Assembly: GCA_020137815.1 (NCBI GenBank)
Contig: CM035354.1
Location: forward strand, 4,650,001 to 4,714,000
DNA length: 64,000 nt
Reading direction: 5' to 3'
DNA from: Hormiphora californensis
Taxonomy: Eukaryota > Animalia > Ctenophora
Of this stretch, positions 15,774-63,257 are shown in pieces (position 1 is the stretch's first letter; the number at the start of each line of letters is the position of its first letter). The position numbers and the translations under genes are program-made. The notes beneath the pieces were generated by a model. The model saw nothing but the letters and a program-made list of their open reading frames with translations. It was not told where the DNA came from and did not search any database.

Positions 15774-16095
15774 TAATCTTTATCCCGTTCACTCAGTTTG
15801 TAATGTTTGTAATGTTCACACTGTGTGCGTGTGACTAGAAAGTGTTTAATTTTTCACATACCACTGCAGCGGTATTTTACTTTATAATTACTAGTGTTTT
15901 TGCAGTGGTCTAAAACTTCACAGTACACTTTAACCACCGGAAACGGTGTACTGTGAAAACTTAGATAACCGGTTAAAATTGTCTAATAACAATTGTTAAA
16001 TGATGGGTGTCAGCATTCTGTACGTGTAGTTGAATTTTCATGAGATATGACCGTTGAACGGCAATCATGGGTTTCTGTGTGTTTGTGTGTGTATA

Positions 16096-18667
16096 CAAGG
16101 TGGGCCACGGATTGTTGGTCATGGTTAGCGAGGTGGTGCGGCAAAACGGTGATATTTGTGAGAATAAAAATTATGGGAGCACTCTGGATCAATTCCTTGG
16201 TAACTTTTTCCATAATTTTTTGTCAAAATTTCGAAAATTCATTTTTCATTCCTTCATTCATTTCTCGTTCACTCATGATGTGAGCATCCTAATTTTCCAT
16301 CATTATGCTATTTTTCTTTGGCTTGAATTTATCTTTCCAATGAGTACCATAAAAATGAAATTGAAGCACCAGGTCACGCAGCAGTTGAGAAAATGTTCAT
16401 GCATGATTTTGGCTCTTTTTGCGACTTTCAAACAGCTGTATCACGGCTACCTTTCGTTCAATCTTCTTAAAACTTTGGGAAAACATTGGATAAGCAAAGA
16501 TCTTTGCTCACAAGAAAAATCAAGGCCAAAGGTCAAAGTTCATTTTTCATTTTTGTTAGTTCATTCCGTTCATTCAGGAACCAACATCCCTAAAGTGATG
16601 AAAAGGTTTGGGTTTTGTTTGGCCCATATCCTGCAATGACAGAGAGGTGTAATAGCATGTTTCCGGGCTAGTTTGAGGGTGTCCATGTGATCATGATGAT
16701 ATCTGACACCTTTTCTGAGCCATAATTTAGGGATTCTCTCAAATTCAAGCATGTAACTTGGTGTTTCTGCGACTAGTACCGTGCAACAATGTTATGAGAT
16801 CTCATAACACCTCAAAAATGATGATTAGCTCAATGAAATGAGTTGATTTATGATCAAAATTGTTCGTTTTGTTCAATTTGACATCGGTTTTAATCTTTTC
16901 AATCATAAATCAACTCATTTCATTGAGCTAATCATCATTTTTGATGTTTTATGAGATCTCATAACATTATCGCACGGTACTAATCGCAGAAAAACCAAGT
17001 TGCATGCTTGAATTAGAGAAATTCCCTTAATTATGGCTCAGAAAAGGTGTCAGATATCATCATGATCACATGGACACCCACAAACTAGCCCGGAAACATG
17101 CTATTACACCTCTCTGTCATTGCAGGATATGGGACAAACAAAACCCAAACATTTTCATCACTTTAGGGATGTTGGTTCCTGAATGAACGGAATGAACTAA
17201 CAAAAATGAAAAATGAACTTTGACCTTTGGCCTTGATTTTTCTTGTGAGCAAAGATCTTTGCTTATCTAATGTTTTCCCAGAGTTTTAAGAAGATTGAAC
17301 GAAAGGTAGCCGTGATACAGCTGTTTGAAAGTCGCAAAAAGAGCCAAAATCATGCATGAACATTTTCTCAACTGCTGCGTGACCTGGTACTTCAATTTCA
17401 TTTTTATTGTGCTCATTGGAAAGATAAATTCAAGCCAAAGAAAAATAGCATAATGATGGAAAATTAGGATGTAGTAGGGACGAATCTTAATTTTTTGACT
17501 CACTATTTGGTGGAAAGCAAATTCCGGTTGTAACCCACCTATTTTGACCCGCCGAACACGATCCCGTTCATAGGTAAGGTCGCAAAAGTGAAGAACATGC
17601 CCAAATCGGCCACGCCCTTTTACCTGTATTTTCAGCCTGTAGCCAAAAACATAAATCCTCTTAGAATAGGAGTAGAGACAAATCTGAGGGCACTAAAGTG
17701 ATCAGCGCCCTCGTATTAGTGGGGGTAGGTGCTAGAATTAAGTCTCTATCTCATGTGGTTAATTAGATAATTGGATAATTAGGTTTCCACATAACCGTTT
17801 TTTGGCTATATGGCTATAGCCACTTAGAAATGGTTTAGAGACTTTTCACTGGCGCCATTTTGTAGGCAATAGCCAAGTTATGGGGGGTCGACGTCGGACT
17901 TTTAAGCTCTATCTCCAACCGTTTAGCCGTTATTGGGCTTGAACGATGCTCAAAATCGGGCTTTTTACCGTTTTTCGCTCATTTTGAGCATCAATTAAGC
18001 CCAATAACGGCTAAACGGTTGGAGATAGAGCTTAAAAGTCCGACGTCGACCCCCCATAACTTGGCTATTGCCTACAAAATGGCACCAATGAAAAGTCTCT
18101 AAACCATTCATAAGTGGCTATAGCCATATAGCCAAAAAACGGTTATGTGGAAACCTAATTATCCAATTATCTAATTAACCAGATGAGATAGAGACTTAAT
18201 TCCAGCACCTACCCCCACTAATACGAGGGCGCTGATCACTTTAGTGCCCTCAGATTTGTCTCTACTCCTATTCTAAGAGGATTTATGTTTTTGGCTACAG
18301 GCTGAAAATACAGGTAAAAGGGCGTGGCCGATTTGGGCATGTTCTTCACTTTTGCGACCTTACCTATGAACGGGATCGTGTTCAGCGGGTAAAAATAGGT
18401 GGGTTACAGCCGGAATTTGCTTTCCACCAAATAGTGAGTCAGCCACTTCTTTTTATAAGAGATTCGTCCTTACTAATGCTCACATCATGAATGAACGATA
18501 AATGAATGAAGGAATGAAAAATGAATTTTCGAAATTTTGACATAAAATTATGGAAAAAGTTACCAAGGAATTGATCCAGAGTGCTCCCATAATTTTTATT
18601 CTCAAAACTATCACCGTTTTGCCGCACCACCTCGCTAACCATGACCAACAATCCGTGGCCCACCTTG
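16096..18667. mobile_element. Compound foldback: outer TA-flanked hairpin element containing two long internal hairpins
   Basis: 16096-16287 is the reverse complement of about 18476-18667 (CAAGGTGGGCCACGG ends, TA on both sides). About 16285-16865 pairs with 16900-17471, and about 17497-17956 pairs with 17981-18440. Confidence 0.85.
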
Positions 18668-19065
18668 TACATGTGTGTTTGTGTGTGTGTGTATGTGTGT
18701 GTTTGTGTGTGAATGACATCATATCATATTTGCATGTGTTCTTTTGTTTCTAATTCAATCGTTACCCCCAACATAATGGATCTGTGTTTAGTGAATTGTA
18801 TATGGGGTGGAGTTGAGATGGTAAAACACACTCAAGATACGACCTAGTAGGGGACACTACTTGTACAATTACACGCCTGCCCAGTTTAATGCAGACCGTA
18901 ATACGAGATGAACGATTGCACGATTGGGACTGACTACTGGCATAGTGTCCCCTACTTTAGCTACGAAACACGAATTGTCTCAAGGTGGTATGAAACATAA
19001 GAATGTCAATGTCACTCGAACACACACGCACATGAATCATATTGATCTGGTCCCGCACAAAACAT

Positions 19066-19310: not shown

Positions 19311-22300
19311 TTATAAATCGAGTCTCTTCCTTCGGCCCTCGTTAACCGATGAGTTAAGGGGAGGTGGGGTATCGGGTGAGATATTGGCTGGCCCGGCTGT
19401 CAGGTATCCTGCAGCTCCAACTGGCCCAGTGAGGTATCCTGCCGTCTTAGTATCCTGGGGGAGGGAGGATGGGGTTAGGGAAACCATCATTTTCAATATA
19501 ATTTCCATGTCATTGGAACAGCCTTGGTATTTCAGCTATCCCTTCCCGCGTGTAGGACCGGAGAGGGGCCTCTGAGGGGTCGTTACACCACCAATTGCAA
19601 TATGTAACAACCAGGTCACGGAAACATTTCTCCTGGACCATGGTTAGGGAAAACATTTCCTGGTCGCTGTAATAATAAAATAAACACATCATGAGACAAT
19701 CAGATTCTAGACCAATAAAATTACCTCCAAGAAAAGGTCGTGTTTCTGATCCTTGTAGCTGGCCCATACTGGACTGTTGGCCAGTTTAGCTTGTACCTTA
19801 TCTCCACTCATCACATCCATTTGCATTGCTTTCAGGGCTATAACCACCTGAAATGAAACAACTTGTTGAGGGTGGGAGATAACCACGTTGTCCAGAGTTC
19901 CCTGACGTTACTAAGCACACTGTCGGGCGGCCCCTCGCTTCAGCGAGGAAATGATTCTTGGCAGAATGTATTTTACCTGTGCTTTGGCTGACGCGGGTGT
20001 ATGGAAGTCGTCCTCCAGTAGACTCAGCAAATACCCAACTAGGTCCACCTGCAGTGCCTGTGCTACCAGGGTCGGGACATTCTTGGTGAAGGCTTTATGA
20101 CACACCTCAGCACCTACTGCCACCGCCTCGTGCCCCCTCTTCATGGCGGTCATAATGTGTTTTACAGAGTCTGTAGTGTTCGCTAGGCACTTTACACAGC
20201 TGTCATTGGAGGTGATGGAGACAAGGATCTGGAGTGAGAGCCGCCCACATCCTGCCGGGTTACTCGCCATGAACTGGGGGAGGGAGGAGGGGGTTACTAA
20301 GATGGTTACTAGCGTGGTTACTAGGATGGTTACTAGGCTGATTACTAGCGTGGTTACTAGGATGGTTACTTGCTGCAGTTTTCTAGAAAAATATACATCA
20401 ATGTCCAATCCAGACCCTCTTTCCTTGATGATGAGGAGCCTTGTTGAGAGGAGTAGTCCCGGGCATGCCATGGCCTACAAGGTTGAGGATTTTGCTCGAT
20501 CTGTTTATGGAGACAAGCGTGAAGATGTCGATCATATTGGTATTTTTGAGCTTGTCTCTAATGGTGAGGAGGTCCCTGGTTTCTCCGCCAGTGATTTTAA
20601 CACACGTCAGTTTACCAAACCGGTTTTGAGTACCCTGTTGGAGTCTGCCTGCAGCTTGCTATTCAAGCAGTGCCTTCCTTACTTCATGGAAACTAGGAAG
20701 TTACACGACCAGGTTGCTAAGTTGGAGAAGGAAGCAGAAGAAGAAGAGAAGAGTTCAGTTCCCGCCACCTCCACCAGTGCCTTACAGCTGAGTGAAGAGC
20801 TGAATGCTGCCCAGAGGAAGATCATCGCCCTCCAGGAGCAAGTGATTGCGCTGAAGGATGATGTCAGATTGGCTGAGTCCAGTGCAGTCACCAAGACAGT
20901 AGAGAGAGATATGAAGAGCTTTTCTACTGTTCTCTCTCAGAATTGTGCAGTAGCAATGGCACCAAGGAGGATCCAACAAGCTGTGAGGAAAGCTACATCA
21001 AGCTCTGTTCCCGAGGACAGGTCCTGTAACCTGATGATATTTGGGTTGCCAGAGGAGTCATCGAAGGAGACTGTTCAGACCTCTGTCAAAGGAGTTTTGG
21101 ACCAGTTGAATGAGAAGCCAGTTCTGGACAAGTGTGGCAGAGTTGGTAGTCCGACAGCTGGGAAGGTGAGGCCTGTCAGAGTAACCCTCAAATCGAGGGA
21201 AACTCTGATCGCTATTCTGAGGAAGGCGAAGGAACTAAAGGGTTCTACAAAATACTGCAAGGTGTTTCTAGAGCCTGATAGGACCCCCGAGGAAAGATTG
21301 GAAAGGAGAAGAACTCTACAGACTCTGAGTGATTTGAGAGTGTCACATCCTGAGGGACGTTACGTGATAAGACGTGGAGTGATTAAGTGTGTGTAGAACT
21401 CCGGGTGTTGCCTGTTATAGCGGGATTTTCCTGCGTTGGCAAAGCCCTTGATTGGGTGTGTGTAAATATTTGATTTTCATTGTTTTCCGAACCCTTTCTA
21501 AATTGTACCCCGATAAAAAAAAGGTAGTTACTAAGATGGTTACTAAGGTAGTTACTAAGGTGGTTACTAGTGTGGTTACTAGGCTGATTACTAGCGTGGT
21601 TACTAGGCTAATAAGGTGGTAACTAGGATGGTCACTAGGATGGTTACTAATGTGGTTACTAAGGTGGTTACTAGGTAGACGAATACCTGTATAAGTTTAG
21701 GAAGGTGTCCAAGAGATGGAACCTGTTCCGACAGTATCGGTTGAGAGGTCAAAAGAGCGACTAAAGCAGCAGCAACAGTTTCAGCTGTCTCCCCGCCACT
21801 CTTGTGTTCCATGACCGTCTCAAACAGGGCAGACATGAACTCCCGCGGTTTTCTAACCGACCAACTGGGCTGTCTGATAAAGTGCTTGATAAAGACACCC
21901 CCCACCACCAGTTCTCCAGCCATGTCGCTGTATCGGACATTGAAATCGGAGGGTAACCGCCAGTCAACGTCAATATTCTTCAGCTTAAAGAGATAGAAAG
22001 AATGTTAGATTGTGTGGAGCTAAAACCGAGGAAGAGAGAGTGAATTCTGGGTCTAATATGGCACCAGTTAGAGATTCCAGGCATCAGGCCAGTACTAATC
22101 ACTGAACCCAATAGACGATTAGTAAAGATTGTAAATCACCTGGTCCTTGTAATGGAAGGTCATCATTTTCTGGACGGTTGCACACAACTTCTCTCTACTC
22201 TCATCACTCCACACTAGTTCTGGATTCTCGTGTGTGTTGTCGAACATGTGGATGGCTGTCTCAGCACTGTCAGAGAGCGCCTCCACAAAGAGGGATGGTA

Positions 22301-47000: not shown

Positions 47001-48438
47001 AGTTACCTAGTCAGGTTGTATCCCTCTTCCATATCGGGTGTGCCCACATAGATATCCCGGTATAACATGTAGAAGTTAGGGTCAGCATCACATACAATCT
47101 TCCTGTTGGCCGCCACAATCTTCTTGATGTCTACATTGATGAAGTGGTTGAAGGAGTCAATGTGCTGCTTCACCATCCCCTTCACCTGAGGGGGGGGGGG
47201 ATTTGACGTGGGCATTAGAGTGAGGGTAGTATTATGAAGAGGTGATATTAAATGAGCTGGAGAGTGGAGACCAGAGAAAGGAATGGTTTGAGATGACAGA
47301 CACTTCTTGGATCTTAGATGACAGATATACACACTTCTTGGATCGGAGAGTTAAGTAGAAGTTTCACAAAGATATTGAGCTATTTCTGAGAAATGAAAGT
47401 CATAAGACAGTATTGTACAGAATTATTAGACGTTTGCTATTGATCGTATTGCATTCTGTGGCCTATATTAAGAGAGACAAGGGAGCACAGTGGCCTTTTG
47501 GTGGTCACTAAGAATTTGACGAAAATTTTCTTTTGCACCTATCTGGTAGCTTTTTTGACGTAGAATCAAATGCACCCCTCACTCTTGCCTTGATTTTTTG
47601 AGGAAAGTGGTGTTTTTTCAATTACCCTTCTTTTTGGAAAAACACCACTTTCCTCAAAAAATCAAGGCATGAGTGAGGGGTGCATTTGATTCTACGTCAA
47701 AAAAGCTACCAGATAGGTTCAAAAAAATATTTTCCTTAATGACCACCTACTCCCATGAAAAAGGCCACTGTGGGGAGAGACAATCACATGCATTGAAATC
47801 TTTATAAGTGTAGCGAGAGAAAGAAAGAGAGTCAGCTAGAGAGAGAAAGATAGATCTGTTTAGCGGTGGTCAGACAGGAATTTACACATCTAGATGAGTA
47901 GATCAAAACAAAGCGATATATAATATATATAATTCTCTCTCCCACCAACCTGTAAGAATGCTGGTAACAACTTCCATTTCTCCTTTATCTCCTTCACGGG
48001 CTCATTAAGAGGAGTGGGGTCCCCAGCAAACAGACCATATGGATCCCTAGGTCCCCCGATCTCCCCACTCTCCCTCGGTCCCCCAAGCTCCCCACTCCCC
48101 TGCTCCATGGGCTCATCTCGGGCCTGCTGTGGGTCAGGTTGTTGTGTGTCAGACTGTTCCGCACCACGTGATTCCTGTGGCACTGGTTCCTGGGTAACAC
48201 GTGACATTGGTTCCTGGGTAACACGTGACATTGGTTGATCCTGGTCACGTGATATGGTGTCACCTGGTGCCTCTCTGTGTGATTCAAACAGCTCCTGTTT
48301 GATCTGTTTGATTGTCCCTCCCTCAGAGGTATCCATGGGTTCAGACTTCACAGCAGCAATCTCACTGCTTCCTTCCTCCTCCTCTCCCTCATAAAACAAC
48401 TCGGGAACCTGGCCCTCTCCTCCCCCTGGTTCATCCAT
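41030..48438 (-). CDS. POLR3B: RNA polymerase III second-largest subunit RPC2, multi-exon
   Basis: [106 protein letters not shown]. Confidence 0.96.
47486..47772. mobile_element. Non-autonomous Transib/RAG-like element (287 bp) in the first POLR3B intron
   Basis: CACAGTG at both ends, GGGAG duplicated at 47481-47485 and 47773-47777, long internal inverted arms. Confidence 0.82.
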
Positions 48439-48843: not shown

Positions 48844-51476
48844 TTAGTCATCTCCCCTTATATTCTGGTAAAGATGAGCCATACTCTCGCCGTTATGGAT
48901 CCTCCTGATCGCCTCAGCTATCATAATGCTAACATCAATAACCTTCAACTTCTTGCACCTCTCCAGTTTATCCCCCACAGGTACGGTGTTACACACCACT
49001 ATCTGGTCTATCTCCTCGGCCTGCTCCAAGTTCCTCAGGACAACTCCCCGACATGACCCCGTGGGTTACCATCACATGGACCTGGATGGCACCCTCAGCC
49101 TTGAGAAGTCGGGCCGCGTCCAGGAAGGTCCTACTCTCAGTCGATCATGTCATCTACAATGATGGCTATCCTGTTCTTGACATCTCCCACCACCCTGAAT
49201 AGAGGGTTTAACTTTGGGAACTGCGGAGGGGACTGTTCCAGGGTAGTCAAATGTGAAGATTTGAGCGGAAAAGGAGGACTGGGGAGGCGGGGAACTTCGC
49301 CCATCGTCACTGTACTCTTCACCCTCGTTCTTTTCCTGAGAGGTATATTAGAAATTTAGTAGGTAGCTGGTATGGGTTGTATGTTCTTTTAGTTTGAGGA
49401 AAATCAACTTCCAAAATTTCACATTTCCTAACCGCGGCCAATCTACATAACGACGGAATGGGGATGCCTTGTTTAGTAGAGTCGATAACTACATCGACCT
49501 CTCCCAATTGTTCCAGTTTTTGTCACATCTGTTTGGAGCCTCGACACGACCTCTAAACAGGTGTTACTTTTTCACAAACTGTTTTCATCTTGGTGTAATC
49601 AGCAGTTGAAATGTTGTTGATCATAACAAAAACCTGACTAAATTTTTTCAACTTGGGGTAAAACCATGGGTGTCAAAAGTTAGCTCTAGGTCCCCTGAGT
49701 AACCATCCGGAGACTCCAAGAGATATTTCAAGCCGTTCTCCTGTAATCATTAATCCCGGTAGAGCACATATTTGAGTATGGACGTACGTGCAATTGCCTA
49801 CAACCTCAACGTTAATGTATAACGTTAATGTGCGTCTCTCTCTCTTTTCTCCCCCTTGAGAAAGAGTTATCTCGCGCGGCGCAACCGCACGTGCGGTTTT
49901 TCCAGAGAGAGTGAGAGACATACAATAACATGTAAACAGCCTGCCAGCGCTCACGTACGTCCGCATTGTATTTTGTTCTCCACCGGGATTAATGATTACG
50001 GGAGAACGGCTTGAAATATCTCTTAGAGTCTCCGGATGGTTACTCAGGGGACCTAGAGCTAACTTTTGACACCCATGGTTTTACCCCAAGTTGAAAAAAT
50101 TTAGTCAGGTTTTTGTTATGATCAGCAACATTTCAACTGCTGATTACACCAAGATGAAAACAGTTTGTGAAAAAGTAACACCTGTTTAGAGGTCGTGTCG
50201 AGGCTCCAAACAGATGTGACAAAAACTGGAACAATTGGGAGAGGTCGATGTAGTTATCGACTCTACTAGTTATGTTCTAATCATTCAAAACCTAGTGAGA
50301 GAGGGTGAAGGGAGGGTGGATCAAGGTAGAGTTATAGTCTAAAATAACTAACCTCTCCGTGTATAACAGCAATGTCCAGCTGGAGCCGCTCTGCGTAACT
50401 GCTAGCCCTCCTAGTGGCATCAGGGGATTTGGCAATGATGACACCGTTCTGGAAATCAGGTACATTGTCCAGGATGTATTGGATTATAAAGGGGGATGCT
50501 CTCAAGGTTGTCCACGGAACAGTCGAAGAAAGCCTGGATCTCCTTGTGATGTAGATCCATGGTTATCAGATGATTCACTCCTGGGGGAAGAGGTGATATT
50601 ATATAAAGCATGCTAAAGAGGGGACATGAAAATCAAGTTACATATTAGAACAGTTGGTTATATCTAAAATGGTGTCATCATTGTACACCTTATTACCAGC
50701 ATTGCAAAGGAGTTTAGCGACCAGTTTAGCAGTGATACACCCTCTCTTCCTCATTTTACACTGCCTTGAGTAGGGCAGGTAGGGAAGGACTGCTACTATC
50801 TTCCTAGCACTGCTAGTTTTACAGGCGTATATTACAATCAGTAGTTCCATAATGAGGTTATTAATGTTATTGCAGTCACCCGAACTGATAATAAACACCT
50901 CCTTGCTCCTCACGTATTCGTTAATCTGAGGGAGGAAGGAGATTCCAGTGGCATTTTGAGAGGATGGGTTTGTTTATAAAGGAGCAAGGTGGACATGGGT
51001 TGAAAATATGGTTAGTACACAACAACAAAACAGAAAGAGATAGCACAACAAAAGAGAGATGTGTAAAGAGGATACCTTGACTCCGGTTTCGTTTCTCAGA
51101 AACTCAGGATCCGCGAACCCCTTGAGAAAGACAGATTGTAGAAAATTTGCTCTGATCTCGGATCGTGGGTGCATACATAATTCTGTTTGAAGCAAAAAAA
51201 ACAAGATTTGCCACAAACACTCAAGCTCGCAGGGCGTGAAAAATCGGCAGCTTAGCTAATTACTCGAACTCCACTCGTTCCTACCTCTACGTCTGTCTCC
51301 TTGTTAGTGGGATGGGTAATGGCCAGGTCGCCCTTTGTTATCCCGAGAATAGTGCACACCTCGTCAGATAGTTGCGGGTGGGCAGAGCACCCGAACACTA
51401 TCATGGGAGGTCGGAGGGAGCTATTGCTGCCCCCTGAGGTCCGGCTCCTGCCGGCAGATCCGTGACGCATAGGCAT
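48844..51476 (-). CDS. PRPSAP: Phosphoribosyl pyrophosphate synthase-associated protein (PAP39/41-like), 4 exons; the last exon has small indels
   Basis: [42 protein letters not shown], insertion [49 protein letters not shown] and DGRxSPP distinguish PRPSAP from catalytic PRPS. Confidence 0.88.
49474..50268. mobile_element. About 800-bp foldback element in a PRPSAP intron
   Basis: 49474 to about 49760 is a near-perfect reverse complement of about 49985-50268 (TAGTAGAGTCGATAACTACATCGACC ends). Confidence 0.88.
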
Positions 51477-52289: not shown

Positions 52290-52638
52290 TTTAAACAGCC
52301 ACGAGGATTAGTTTTGTGTCTTGTTTCTTCAAAAATTAGCCAAAAATCGGTATCCAGTTTTTAAATTTTGAAGTTTCGGGCCGTTTTTTCGAAACTTCAA
52401 ATTTTGAAATTTGGATTGAATTCCAATTAGCGCCGCGCATTTAAATTTTTCTACGCTGCGTGTTGCGCCGCGCGATGTAAAAATCAAAAACCTGAAGCAA
52501 GCTGAGTTGCGATTTTTGTTTTCAAAGCAAATTTGTCAAAGACGAACCTTTTCTTTGCCCCAAACCCTTCAAAAACAAGCGGTTGCCGGTTTTCTTCAGT
52601 TTTTCTAATTTTGAGGCTTTAGGGAATGCGGAGGAATA

Positions 52639-54062
52639 GGGATCCCTAAAAAAGTTCAGTATTTACACAGAGTTTACACCAGTTAAGCCACTTCATCACT
52701 TTCATCAACTACAACGTAAAACTATTTATTGAGCAGGAAGATGAATCTGATGTAACAGCCCCAAAGGGCAGGAAGACGAAACGCTGTTAATGTCGGAAAC
52801 GAAGTACGAGGGTGATAACCCTATGATAAAACAATTGAAAGAGACAGTAGATAACTTTGTTTCTGAAGTTTACCGGTTGAATTCGACGGATGATCCCAAC
52901 ACGATGAGTATCACCCTAGATCAGTTTAATCAATGTTATAAACAGATCCAAACTGCACCTGATTCAACGTTAACCAACGACAAATTAGCTTCGCCTTGCA
53001 AGCACTGGGGTTCGTACTTTAGACATTGTCTCAAGGACCGAACTACGAGTGAAATGATTAAGGCTACTTCGCGTATTTTTCTCTCCAGTATGAAACTTGC
53101 CCGAGCAACAATGAACAATTTTAAAACTGTTATCAGTGTGGAAAACCTCGAGAAGCAGCTGCGTGAATGCAAAGAAGAACTTGACCGTCATCGGGTTAGC
53201 GTGATCGAGCTTCAGCAAACGGTTATCAACCAACAGAACCAACAACTCAGTACAGTGACAGCATCGGTGCAGAAGGTGAAAGCCTACTCTACTGTTCTTG
53301 CACAGAATTGTGCTGCAACCTCCCCCAAATTGGGAAAACTGCCACCTTTACATCACCCTACTCCCGTCCAACAGCCCGGAAGAGAGAAGAACCTGGTTGT
53401 GTTTGGTCTTCCAGAAACAACGGATAGAGTAGCTAAAACTACTTTGGACGAACTGTTTGAGGAATTGCAAGAGAAACCAAAGGTGACAACGACGAAACGC
53501 ATCGGGGAAAGAAACGAGAAGCGCCCTAGACCGCTCTTAGTATCACTGGAGAAGAGATCGACTCTCCTGGCGCTGCTCAAAAAGGCACGAAACCTCAAGG
53601 ACTCCAAACAGTTTTCGGCTGTTTATCTCTCTCCGGACCTAACGCCCTCTGAACTGAAGGAGCAAAAAGCTCTCAGGTCCACTTTGAAACGGTTACGATT
53701 AGAAGATCCAGACGGCTGTTATTTCATCCGCAATAATGTTATCCAAGTGGGATAGTTCCCTACAAATTAACTATTTATTTATGCTCTTGTTTTGTATCTG
53801 TACCACTTTTGAAAGTGAGGAGTGTGTAGAGCGTTGGCTAGTAGTGCATGCTCCAATATTTTACACTATAAAGTGGTATATATAAATGAATATATTACAT
53901 TTACATTTACATTTACATTTCAGTTTTTCCCACGGTAGCGTGGGAAGAAAAATTTCGAAATCTGCGCTGTGATTGGCTAAAATTTTTCTTCGTCAGAAAT
54001 TTCAGCCAATCACAGCACACGCTGTAAACGCTGTGTAAATACTGAACTTTTTTAGGGATCCC
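52639..54062. mobile_element. TA-flanked TIR element that encloses an ORF1-only retroelement
   Basis: GGGATCCCTAAAAAAGTTCAGTATTTACACAG(a/c)GTTTACA at 52639 is inverted at about 54023-54062, with TA on both sides. Confidence 0.8.
52790..53755 (+). mobile_element. LINE ORF1-like ORF (321 aa) of a second ORF1-only retroelement, about 52680-53920
   Basis: Coiled coil, then REKNLVVFGLPE...KRIG...RPRPLLVSL...VYLSPDLTPSE. Homologous to 20401-21396. The 3' end has a (TTACAT)n tail at about 53894-53920, and no ORF2 follows. Confidence 0.78.
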
Positions 54063-54255
54063 TATAGTGTGTAAGCGAATTTTCAATATTCAAACGTTTA
54101 GCGGCTATATTTTACTAAATTACCGTCGTCGCCTTTCGCCTGTATTGTAACTTTCCTACTTCCTAGAGAGACTGACACCATTTATGTTTTGTAATTAAGT
54201 TATTTTATCAAGTTCTTATCCAGTATCCTTAATCACAACTTTCAACCTTTAGATC

Positions 54256-56510: not shown

Positions 56511-59500
56511 CAGGGTGTTCATATGGGATCTTTACAAGCGTTGGGCTACACCCAGAAAAAAGTTGACAAGATTAGGTCATGAAACTTCATACTTGGCCTA
56601 TTATATACCCTCATTCAAGGTTCCTGGGGGTTTGGAGCTCTAGCACCCCCAGAAGTGTGTTTTTGGCATCAAAACTACCAGAAGGAATTTTTTTGTTGGT
56701 GCTGAGACTTTGCTAAAACAATTTTTGGTATTTTCTATGTCAATTTCTCTGTATATTGCCCTCAGAAGGATGATCCTGTATGCTGCTTTTGTGCTGGCAC
56801 ACATCAGACGAAGGATTGTAGAGCGAAGAAGAACAATGAAACAGGCAAGATGAAGTGTGTGAATTGTGAAGTTGGAGGATCACGAGAGGACAAGAAGTAT
56901 GCGAAGACCCACACGGCTTCAAGTATGTGGTGCCCTTCGTACATTAACGAGCGAGCACGGCTAATGGAGAGGACTTCAGGTGTGAGCAAAGAGAAAAAAA
57001 ACATGTACTGGACGAGGACCAAAGAGGAACTACTCAGGAAAAGACTTGGAAGATTGGGACACTAAATGTTCGCTCTCTTGTTAATAAAACTGGAGGTGTT
57101 ATTTCTCATCTGGAAGAAGAGGATTGTGATATCTGTCTCGTACAGGAAACCTTTTTGAAGTCTACGGATACTGGGAAACTCCAGGAGATTAGGGATAATG
57201 GATGGGATATTTTATCATGTCCACGAGGAGACAGAGGAGGTGGAGGAATAGGAATTCTTTTTCGGGACGGTATAGTCCTTCGACAGTGCCCAGTGAAGAC
57301 AAAGTTTAAGTCTTTTCAAGTGCAGGAGGTTCTCATCAGTGACAGAGATCAACCAAAGAGACTCTGTAATGTTTATCGTCCACCATACACAACTAAGTCA
57401 AGACTCACAGAGGCTACATTCCTATCTGAGTTCGGAGACTATCTTTCAGAACTTGTTATGAAGCAAGGTACTCCAATTATAGCAGGGGATCTGAACTTTC
57501 AGGTGCAGGACAAGAACAACTTCTACTCGAGGAAACTATTGGAGCTTCTAGATTCATTTGACCTTCAGCAAAGAGTACCACTATTGCCTACTCACCAACT
57601 TGGTGGAACCTTAGACCTGGTGATAACTACAAGGGAAACCAATCTAGGAGATTTAACAATTTGTCCTAATGGTACTACTTCGGACCACTTCCTGGTACAG
57701 TTTGGGCTTGAAGTGAGACAGGACCTGTCAAACTCTTGTATGCGGAAATCAATGTTTCGAGAATACATGGACTACAAGTCAATGGACAAGGAAGGATTCA
57801 GAGAGGACCTCCAGAAAGCGGAATTTGAACCAGGCCGGGATCCAGAGGAGAGTATTGTAAACTTCTATCGTTGGTTGGAAAGTGTAGTGGAAAGGCGAGT
57901 TCCGAGGAAACGGGTGAGGACAGGGAAAAAGTTTAAACCGTGGAGAGATGAGGAACTAAGAGGAATACTACGTAAGAGGAGGAGTGCGGAACGATACTGG
58001 AGGAAGCATGGAACTGAGGAAGCGAAACGGAGATTCAATGATTTGAAGAAGCTCTATGGAAACATGGACAAGGAAAAGAGAGCAGCTTTTGTTAAAGAGG
58101 ACTTGGATGCGGCAAAAGGGGACCCGAAGAAGCTACAAAGAAAGTTACAGAAACTCCTGGGAAAAGCGGAAACTATTCTTCCTGAGACTACCAACAACAA
58201 GAACCTGGCTGATGATTTTTCAAAGTTCTTTAGTTCAAAGGTGACCAAAATTCGGACCCAAGTCAATGAGGAGCAGCAGCAGGCTGGCGATTTTGTGGAA
58301 TCTGGAAAATCCTGTCATACAACATGGAATGAATTCAAAGAGATATCTGAGGAGGAACTTGTTTCATTAGTGAAATCGATGTCCAGCAAGCACTGTGACC
58401 TGGACCCGTTGCCCACTTGGGTGGTAAAGGAGTGTATAAGTGATCTGGCTCCTGCATTAACATCAATAGTCAATCAGTCTCTACATCAGTCTTCGGTCGC
58501 AGAATCTCTCCAGGAGGCACTTGTCTTTCCTACCATCAAGAATATGTATGGAGATCGTGAAGCTCTCAGCAACTATCGTCCTGTTTCGAACATCCCATTT
58601 CTGTCTAAGCTTCTTGAGAAGGTAGTTCTCACGCAACTCAATGACTACCTGGATCGCAACTCTCTTTTGGGCAAACATCAGTCTGGCTATCGTGTTGGTC
58701 ACAGTTGTGAAACGCTATTGGCAAGCATGTTCGATGACATTCTAGGGGAAATGGATAAAGGAAACGTAGTAGCTCTTATCTGTCTAGATATGAGTGCTGC
58801 TTTTGATACGGTTGACCATGGAAAGTTGTTGGAGGTGTTGCAGAAACGGTTTGGAGTGGATGGTGAACCTCTCCGATGGTTTAAAAGCTATTTGAGTTCC
58901 AGATCTTTTAGAGTTTCGGTCGGTGATTGCCTTTCGGAAACCCTTGCTTTACTTTGTGGAGTCCCTCAAGGGTCCCTCCTTGGTCCTATTTTGTTCCTAC
59001 TCTACATCGAGGCTGTACAAGATATTGTGGAGCCATATGGACTCCGGATAAAGTTATATGCAGATGATTCCCAGCTCTACGTGAGTCTGGTTCCTACGGA
59101 TGCTGCTGGCTGGGTTGAGGCAAAGGTGGATATTGAGGAGTGTCTGGCGAAGGTGAAGAGGTGGATGGTAGGGCAGTGGTTGAAGTGTAATGAGGCCAAA
59201 ACGGAATTCATCCTGCTTGGAAAGCGCAGTTCTCTAAGCAAAGTCTCTTTTGATCCAGTTATTAACTTTGGAGGAACGGAAATCTCCCCCAGTGAATGTA
59301 GTGGAACAGATGGTAAAACCCTGGGAATTCTCTTGGATCATAACCTTGGCCTTGAACGACAGGTTAACAATGTGAGGAAACAGTGTGGACTGATGTTACG
59401 AAACCTTTGGCAACTGCACAGGTGTTTTGATATCCCAACAAAGATAATGTTGGTCAAACAGTTGATTTTATCGAGGATAGACTACAGTAACATTCTGTAT

Positions 59501-60739
59501 TGTGGACTTCCTGGTCGAGTTCTCAGTGGGCTCCAGAAGCTTCTCAATGCCTGTGTTCGTTTTGTATTTAACCTCCACGGACACCAGGACAACTACATGG
59601 AGTATTTCAGGCAATGTCATATTTTACCGATCTCCTACAGGTTGGACTTCAAAGCATGTTTGATTGCCTACAAAATAGTCAATGGAACAGCCCCGTGTTA
59701 TCTCCAGGATTTGGTGCCACGTGATGAGACTTGGGGAACCTCTAGGACAACGAGGATGACTAATGTTCCGGATCCCTATAGGTTAAAACATCCAAAGATG
59801 ACCAGTATCAATGCCAACTCTAAGTTGAGACGTAGGAGGTTATCAGTATTCCTGCCCTCTGTCTGGAATGAGCTTCCTCTTGAGCTCAGGTCAATCCCCA
59901 ATGTGGATACTTTCAAAACCCGGCTGAAAACACATCTCTTCGTTGGTGCATTTGGAGTGGGTGATGGGGAACCCATGGCTGAGTTGTAATGTTTGTTGTA
60001 GTTGTGGGGCCTGCGGGCAATCAGTGTCATCCTCTCTCTAGCCATGTTATTAATTCATTACCTAGTATCCTTTTTTCGAGCAGGTGTGAGTATAGTGTGT
60101 TTTAATTTATATCTACAGGATTATGGGACCAGTTATTCCCTCAGTTTTATAAGTCAAGTTTATTTAGTCGTCTATATATTGTTTTTCAACCAGAGCTGTT
60201 CGAGTGTGTCATATAAGTAGTCGAGGATATACCGCTCTGATGATTCGGCGGAACATCGTCAATATTTTGACATGTCTCTGTCGGGTATGGGCGGTATATA
60301 AGCGCGGAATATTATTATTATTATTATTATTAATTCCAAAGTTTCATGATGATTGCTTGGATGTGTGGTTCAGTCACCAAGTTCCAAATAAACTGGCTGG
60401 AAAGGCCCAAAAACAGCAAAAATATATATTTTAGAGTTTTTTAGACACTTTTTTCGAAATTTCTACTTCATAAAACACATCCAATCATCACGAAACTTTG
60501 GAATTGACATAGAAAATACCCAAAAAAACATTCTAGCAATGTCTCAGCGCCAGCAAAAATTCCTTCTGGTAGTTTTGATGCCAAAAACACACTTCCGGGG
60601 GTGCTAGAGCTCCAAAACCCCCAGGAACTTTGAATGAGAGTATAGAATAGTCCAAGTATGAAGTTTCATGACCTAATCTTGTCAACTTTTTTCTGGGTGT
60701 AGCCCAACGCTTGTAAAGATCCCATATATGAACACCCTG
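56511..60739. mobile_element. Tc1/mariner-type foldback MITE (CAGGGTG ends) interrupted by a LINE
   Basis: CAGGGTGTTCATATGGGATC at 56511 is inverted at 60739. An uninterrupted copy lies at 62585-63216. Confidence 0.85.
56746..60331 (+). mobile_element. 5'-truncated non-LTR retrotransposon (CR1/L2-group-like): zinc-knuckle ORF1 remnant plus intact APE-RT ORF2
   Basis: ORF1 tail CCFCAGTHQTKDC and CVNC...H...C. ORF2 is open from 56948 to 59989 with LNVRS, QET, GDLNF, TLDLV, SDH, YRPVSN, DMSAAFDTVDH, GVPQGS, YADD, FKTRLKTHLF. (ATT)n tail at 60311-60331 and AATT duplicated at both ends. Confidence 0.93.
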
Positions 60740-62315: not shown

Positions 62316-62584
62316 TAGTTTTGTCAAAAAAAGTCAAGTGGTGGGTCTCTCGCAATCACTGCGTAAGCCGGCGGTGCTTATCTCCGATTCAAGCTCTAAG
62401 CCACTCCGTACCGTGGTACTAAACTAACAGTATGGGGGCCAGCCCTACGTGCAGTTTTTATTAGATCTAATTTATTGCTTTTTTATGGAACGTTTTACTT
62501 TGAACATTTTGTTTTCTTCTGATTGTTAATACCTCTAACTCTCTTACCCCTAAATTCACTCCGTCGCCCCCCCCCCCCCTTATA

Positions 62585-63216
62585 CAGGGTGTTCATATGG
62601 GATCTTTACAAGCGTTGGGCTTCACCCAGAAAATATTTGACTAGATTAGGTCATGAAACTTCATACTTGGACTATTCTATACCCTCATTCAAGGTTCCTG
62701 GGGTTTTTGGAGCTCTAGCACCCCCGGAAGTGTGTTTTTGGCATCAAAACTACCAGAAGGAATTTTTTGCTGGTGCTGAGACTTTGCTAAAAAATTTTTA
62801 GGTATTTTCTATATTAATTCCAAAGTTTCATGATGATTGGATGTGTGGTTCAGTCACCAAGTTCCAAATAAACTGGCTGGAAAGGCCCAAAAACAGCAAA
62901 AATCGATATTTTAGAGTTTTTTAGACACTTTTTTCGAAATTTCTACTTCATAAACCACATCTAATCATCACGAAACTTTGGAAATGACATAGAAAATACC
63001 CAAAAAACATTCTAGCAAAGTCTCAGCGCCAGCAAAAATTCCTTCTGGTAGTTTTGATGCCAAAAACAGACTTCCGGGGGTGCTAGAGCTCCAAAACCCC
63101 CAGGAACCTTGCATGAGGGTATAGAATAGTCCAAGTATGAAGTTTCATGACCTAATCTTGTCAACTTTTTTCTGGGTGAAGCCCAACGCTTGTAAAGATC
63201 CCATAAGAACACCCTG
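62585..63216. mobile_element. Uninterrupted copy of the CAGGGTG foldback MITE
   Basis: TA-flanked, with inverted arms of about 260 bp. Confidence 0.88.
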
Positions 63217-63257
63217 TATACATCTAATTCTCCTATAATACCCCTAACTTCACTCCG

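Follow-up and report, generated by a model that had tools for sequence, protein, structure and literature searches.

Transib transposons are marked by a target-site duplication (TSD) of 5 bp according to the sections of Kapitonov and Jurka 2005 drawn on here (PMC1131882), which describe RSS12-like and RSS23-like ends in Transib5, Transib2_AG and the non-autonomous TransibN1-3_AG. Most Transib families have symmetric ends, as stated in excerpts of PMC8289069. For ctenophores, Tao et al. 2022 reported six proteins, all of them Transib or Transib-like, and found asymmetric ends in every Subgroup I Transib (PMC9435367). The available portion of their supplement shows five ctenophore Subgroup I elements (MleTransib_2823, MleTransib_3931, MleTransib_6236, PbaTransib_0868 and PbaTransib_8175), in which all eight marked ends start with CACAGTG and PbaTransib_0868 has a marked 5-bp TSD. 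Counted by eye in that portion, a TARG motif lies 16 nt (3' end) and 26 nt (5' end) past the heptamer in PbaTransib_0868 and MleTransib_3931, 17 and 27 nt past it in MleTransib_2823, and 16 nt past it in MleTransib_6236 and PbaTransib_8175, for each of which a 3' end alone is marked, TARG being an anchor of our own choice rather than the shading of Fig. 1g in PMC9435367.

Asymmetric ends are also described for RAG-like (RAGL) transposons. ProtoRAG has spacers of 27 and 31 (excerpts of PMC8289069), and the ends of PflRAGL-A, or RAGL-A, show a 10-bp asymmetry in the sections of a preprint (bioRxiv 10.1101/2023.08.20.553239) that also describe nick-and-hairpin cutting as common to RAG, ProtoRAG and HzTransib. 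Passages of PMC8355894 propose, rather than demonstrate, a functional asymmetry or a pairing rule that preceded RAG2, and biochemistry on more Transib transposases is called for in the preprint sections (bioRxiv 2023.08.20.553239).

Here we describe a short element that is very probably a non-autonomous Transib, likely of Subgroup I and from a comb jelly; a Transib transposase whose gene lies elsewhere likely moves it. It was found in a 64-kb window, the whole stretch of DNA analysed, within a predicted intron of POLR3B, whose exons were placed by tblastn of two RPC2 homologues and whose GT/AG borders were picked out by eye in the translated sequence. The top 120 RPC2 matches show 66-70% identity across animals, with no named ctenophore among them. 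Elsewhere in the window, a lineage-specific SRCR protein has six relatives, two from Pleurobrachia bachei (61% and 58%) and the other four at 51-81%; this single gene family makes a ctenophore the likely host.

Table 1. Features of the element, its target-site duplication and the host intron, in window coordinates.
Feature	Position	Strand	Basis or remark
POLR3B (RNA polymerase III second subunit) intron containing the element, predicted	47186..47949	-	tblastn exons on either side
Left TSD copy, GGGAG	47481..47485		sequence; single copy in the empty allele, runs X4 and X5
Short end: CACAGTG, 7 shared nt and inner motif	47486..47514	+	TAAG 16 nt past the heptamer
Long inverted repeat, left inner arm	47516..47621	+	106 nt, 93% complementary to 47634-47739
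Loop separating the arms	47622..47633		12 nt; longer relatives leave the alignment at ~47620 and ~47638
Long inverted repeat, right inner arm	47634..47739	-	106 nt, partner 47516-47621
Long end, with heptamer CACAGTG	47738..47772	-	TAAG 27 nt past the heptamer
Insertion of 11 bases in the long end	47748..47758	-	placement slides by one base in a T run
Right TSD copy, GGGAG	47773..47777		sequence and empty alleles

The element spans 47486-47772 (287 bp) and lies directly between two copies of GGGAG (Table 1). Its whole length forms a near-palindrome of two complementary arms around a short loop, a feature that the first-pass annotation of this DNA had left unremarked. Coding capacity is absent, the longest stop-free stretch in six frames being 37 codons. 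Short, non-coding, bounded by terminal inverted repeats and a TSD, and multi-copy, the element has the structure of a MITE. It is the sole CAC...GTG pair less than 3 kb apart in the window that combines a 7-bp inverted repeat with a 5-bp duplication, and contigs from sequencing runs X4 and X5 skip exactly the element and one duplicate, which argues against a chance arrangement. No further copy was found in the window, the best other blastn match having an E value of 2.2. A miRNA or other Rfam RNA was considered and rejected: none of 23 Rfam matches reaches the gathering threshold, and these matches reflect the hairpin.

When the two ends were aligned to each other, their first 14 nt, heptamer CACAGTG included, formed a perfect repeat, after which 11 nt are inserted in the right end. 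Past the heptamer, GGTGGTCA begins after 7 nt on the left and 18 nt on the right, TCAYTAAG after 12 and 23 nt, and TAAG after 16 and 27 nt. The first-pass annotation had read the same heptamers, the GGGAG duplicated outside them, the inner-motif and TCAYTAAG spacings and the 11-nt difference, and both the sequence and the end alignment bear it out. Since 7/18, 12/23, 13/24 and 16/27 are all possible registers, the 11-nt difference alone is a fact, and calling it 12/23 is a choice of register. The RSS nonamer agrees with the 9-mers at spacers 12 and 23 in only four of nine places, which bears out the annotation's statement that the canonical nonamer is missing. The heptamer is followed by GCCTTTT, with neither an adenine-rich TR2 of the RAGL type nor an AT-rich nonamer. 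The AA expected of a Transib at positions 5-6 of a nonamer-like block, about 12 or 23 nt past the heptamer, is present at spacers 13 and 24, a weak test that involves two bases. A second indel of 8 nt, not remarked on before, lies just inside the shared motif; here it is the left end that is longer. If the published ctenophore Transibs are a guide, the short end corresponds to their 3' end and the long end to their 5' end, which would place the element on the minus strand.

In a word screen of 21 listed sequencing runs, six contain at least half of the words, and all six are from one organism (organism A); marine metagenome runs with small word shares were left out of the evidence. The locus was compared in three of these six runs (X1, X4 and X5) and in a run from organism B (X7), whose contigs lack left-flank coverage. 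Contigs in two of the three organism-A runs, X4 and X5, carry the exact empty site with a single GGGAG, skipping 292 nt (287 + 5), the five letters fitting either side. These empty alleles prove a 5-bp TSD, for this one insertion, and so support the first-pass annotation in reading a Transib-like element bounded by such a duplication. A third allele, seen in one X1 contig, lacks the element and retains the two TSD copies, the left of them shorter by one base, separated by TTA, which is what a germline excision footprint would look like; we regard it as a candidate for one. In the four target 5-mers seen, 14 of 20 bases are G or C (vs 44% for the window), too small a sample to call the targets GC-rich. 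Among the contigs listed, none contains this insertion's own junctions or spans the whole element, and graph simplification beside a repeat may explain their lack. An assembly artefact or a chance hairpin was rejected on the strength of the empty alleles, the end-identical contigs and the loop-crossing contigs in independent runs. No contig of run X21, from organism C, matched the locus, which is not proof of absence from that organism. Relative to the window, X1, X4 and X5 also carry a 7-nt insertion at 47409; in X1 it is partial, and in the other two runs it is fixed.

Both end types recur elsewhere in organism A. Expressed as multiples of flank depth, contigs identical to the short and long ends reach 5.3 and 4.4 in X1, 6.2 and 8.0 in X4, and 3.9 and 1.8 in X5 (a short-to-long ratio of 2.1 in the last), rough contig depths that give no copy number and that we read as several copies of each end type. 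In X4, a diverged subfamily has a long end that aligns over 135 nt with 19 differences (14%) and no gap, with TGAG in place of the TAAG motif. The same run contains a mini-copy of about 76 bp, in which 47496-47528 is joined to 47749-47772; it consists of a short end and the long end's outer portion, and the inner motif of the long end is missing. With this mini-copy, a short and a long end have been seen together in two copies. The motif-less mini-copy and the TGAG subfamily suggest that the inner motif may not be essential.

The two end types are found in organism B as well. Two X7 contigs have the long end, its 11 extra letters unchanged, and the short end is present in one contig each of X7 and X18. 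All four of the end-bearing contigs shown have T for C at position 9, in both end types. At the site of the 8-nt indel, the organism-B long end has nine extra letters, so this indel is not conserved. The possibility that the 11-nt difference is private to one copy was therefore rejected: the check that the first-pass annotation had proposed, whether the asymmetry holds across copies, shows it to be family-wide, with both end types recurring in organism A and again in organism B. As short contigs collapse a palindrome, copies with two short or two long ends may exist.

Other contigs in X1, X4 and X5 follow the arm up to ~47620, or from ~47638, and continue into ~200-255 unlike, AT-rich bases, from which we conclude that longer relatives with inverted repeats of ~135 bp exist. 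Together with an X4 contig of 1605 nt that has a 64-nt match to the arm, these longer relatives are candidates for the autonomous parent. The simplest origin for the element would be loss of the interior of such a longer relative, the 12-nt loop being the likely junction. Origin as a fold-back of a single end is disfavoured, since in the longer relatives the arm accompanies short and long ends alike.

Scans of metagenome contigs (two) and viral contigs (three) gave no matches, and there was no Pfam match to a transposase family in the 14 ORFs scanned of the 47 window ORFs of at least 120 aa; a transposase with these ends was thus not found in those contigs or in the scanned ORFs. Five pattern matches in prokaryote genomes, all five without the element's interior, were taken as chance. 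Among the papers listed for Transib and for ctenophores, none reported this family, which may already be catalogued in Repbase or Dfam, outside that search.

Key likenesses point to the ctenophore Transibs. In the portion of the Tao et al. supplement consulted (PMC9435367), these have CACAGTG followed by G, bipartite asymmetric ends and, where marked (PbaTransib_0868), a 5-bp TSD, as the element does, and it likely comes from the same phylum. TARG-type motifs lie at 16/27 in the element vs 16-17/26-27 in those entries, the short end agreeing to the exact position, whereas the ends differ by 11 nt here and by 10 in the three published pairs counted by eye. Unlike the five ctenophore Transibs, the element is non-coding and near-palindromic. 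Its spacers differ from those of all five in that portion, which rules out each of these as its direct parent, and two exact motifs of the element were not found as end sequences there.

The insect Transibs, as far as the excerpts of PMC1131882 describe them, offer the parallel of TransibN1-3_AG, which are likewise non-autonomous, with RSS12-like and RSS23-like ends and a 5-bp TSD; their targets are GC-rich, as those of the element may be. CAC and AA at nonamer positions 5-6 are common to insect Transibs and the element (at spacers 13 and 24). In contrast, the insect heptamer consensus is CACAATG and is accompanied by an A-rich nonamer that the element lacks, and the RSS12-like end is the 5' end in these insect Transibs, whereas in ctenophore elements it is the 3' end that is short. 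From what is described of ProtoRAG and PflRAGL-A, RAGL transposons share with the element heptamer-led bipartite asymmetric ends and a 5-bp TSD, but they have RAG1L and RAG2L genes and an adenine-rich TR2, whereas the element has no genes, no TR2 and no nonamer. V(D)J RSS12 and RSS23 have the same heptamer and the same 11-nt length difference; unlike them, the element has no nonamer, its two spacers have sequence in common, and it is a mobile element rather than a host signal.

We hold the assignment to Transib with high confidence. In the mechanism we envisage, a RAG1-like single-protein DDE transposase, made elsewhere, would bind the heptamer and the inner TARG motif of each end and pair one short with one long end, the motifs lying one helical turn apart. 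Cutting would occur at CAC and leave hairpins on the flanking DNA, as in RAG and HzTransib, and insertion would follow with a 5-bp stagger at a GC-rich site. A real preference of the enzyme for one short and one long end is, on balance, probable. The first-pass suggestion that a transposase with asymmetric end pairing exists or existed in this lineage gains support from the published ctenophore Transibs (PMC9435367).

The reading that competes most closely keeps the same family and treats the 11-bp difference as a passenger: the enzyme would need roughly the outer 14 bp of each end, and the asymmetry would be inherited without selection. This is quite possible, if against our leaning. It draws on the X4 mini-copy that lacks the long end's inner motif and on the diverged subfamily in which that motif is changed, as well as on the mostly symmetric ends of Transib families and the finding, both in excerpts of PMC8289069, that in vitro cleavage changed little when ProtoRAG's distal TR5 element was deleted or mutated. 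However, the difference has been kept in two organisms and in a subfamily diverged by 14%, whereas the adjoining 8-nt indel has not; in the supplement entries available, a one-turn difference also appears in three further ctenophore families whose spacers are unrelated; and ProtoRAG is described in the same excerpts as preferring its asymmetric pair of ends (PMC8289069). These points favour a functional short-long pairing by a Transib transposase.

It is very unlikely that another superfamily with CAC ends (Chapaev, the EnSpm/CACTA type or a P-like enzyme) moves the element. Such an origin would be compatible with our not having found the mobilizing enzyme in the sequences searched, but Chapaev and CACTA TSDs are 3-4 bp, against 5 bp here. 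The empty allele fixes the TSD at that length, the mark of Transib in the sections of PMC1131882 used, and the short end matches the ctenophore Transib ends in the supplement entries position for position. A parent that is a true RAG-like ctenophore transposon with RAG1L and RAG2L would account for the perfect RSS heptamer, the 5-bp TSD and a one-turn asymmetry of the kind described for RAGL-A elements, but is very improbable, given that the heptamer and motif position match RAG2-less ctenophore Transibs, that the RAGL-type adenine-rich TR2 and AT-rich nonamer are absent, and that the six ctenophore proteins of Tao et al. are all Transib (PMC9435367).

The wider significance that the first-pass annotation attached to the locus is not supported. 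Its term RAG-like finds no support in the strict sense, as the element has no coding sequence, gives no evidence of RAG2 and has ends that match RAG2-less ctenophore Transibs. Nor is there support for regarding a difference of exactly 11 bp, or a 12/23 spacing, as special, since the three published ctenophore pairs in the supplement portion differ by 10. The anticipated news for RAG origins had already appeared: 12/23-like ends were described for Transibs in 2005, and asymmetric ends for those of ctenophores in 2022; because the ctenophore elements are in print, the picture of RAG origins is unchanged. What is new to report is a probable non-autonomous member of the ctenophore Subgroup I Transibs, from a possibly active family, and not the asymmetric-end design. 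Its practical value lies in its segregating insertions and possible footprint, which suggest that an intact Subgroup I enzyme may exist, and its many copies allow short-long pairs to be counted against symmetric ones.

A stronger proposal, which we put forward as tentative and rather doubtful, is that a still-active Subgroup I Transib of comb jellies enforces strict one-turn short-long pairing without RAG2. It is suggested by ends that co-vary between organisms, arms more than 90% alike, retention of the 11-bp difference and the candidate footprint. If it were true, the single-protein ancestor of RAG would have in this transposase a living counterpart open to experiment, and a 12/23-type rule would be older than RAG2 and the nonamer.

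Palindromic mini-elements are common in this window. Two further elements are palindromic over their whole length, at 49474-50268 (795 bp) and 62581-63220 (640 bp). A TA-flanked element at 16094-18669, which we take from its ends to be Tc1/mariner-like, has 194-bp inverted repeats (97%) and internal palindromes at 16285-17471 and 17496-18441. At 52636-54065, 43-bp inverted repeats surround an ORF of 334 aa (52751-53755) with no Pfam match, which the ORF at 20101-21396 resembles. Finally, the segment 54253-64000 contains a tandemly repeated pair of nitrilase and Oxa1/YidC-like genes, with copies at ~54.8, 60.8 and 63.3 kb that are 92-95% identical, and an endonuclease/reverse-transcriptase ORF of 1013 aa (56948-59989) lies between copies of this pair.
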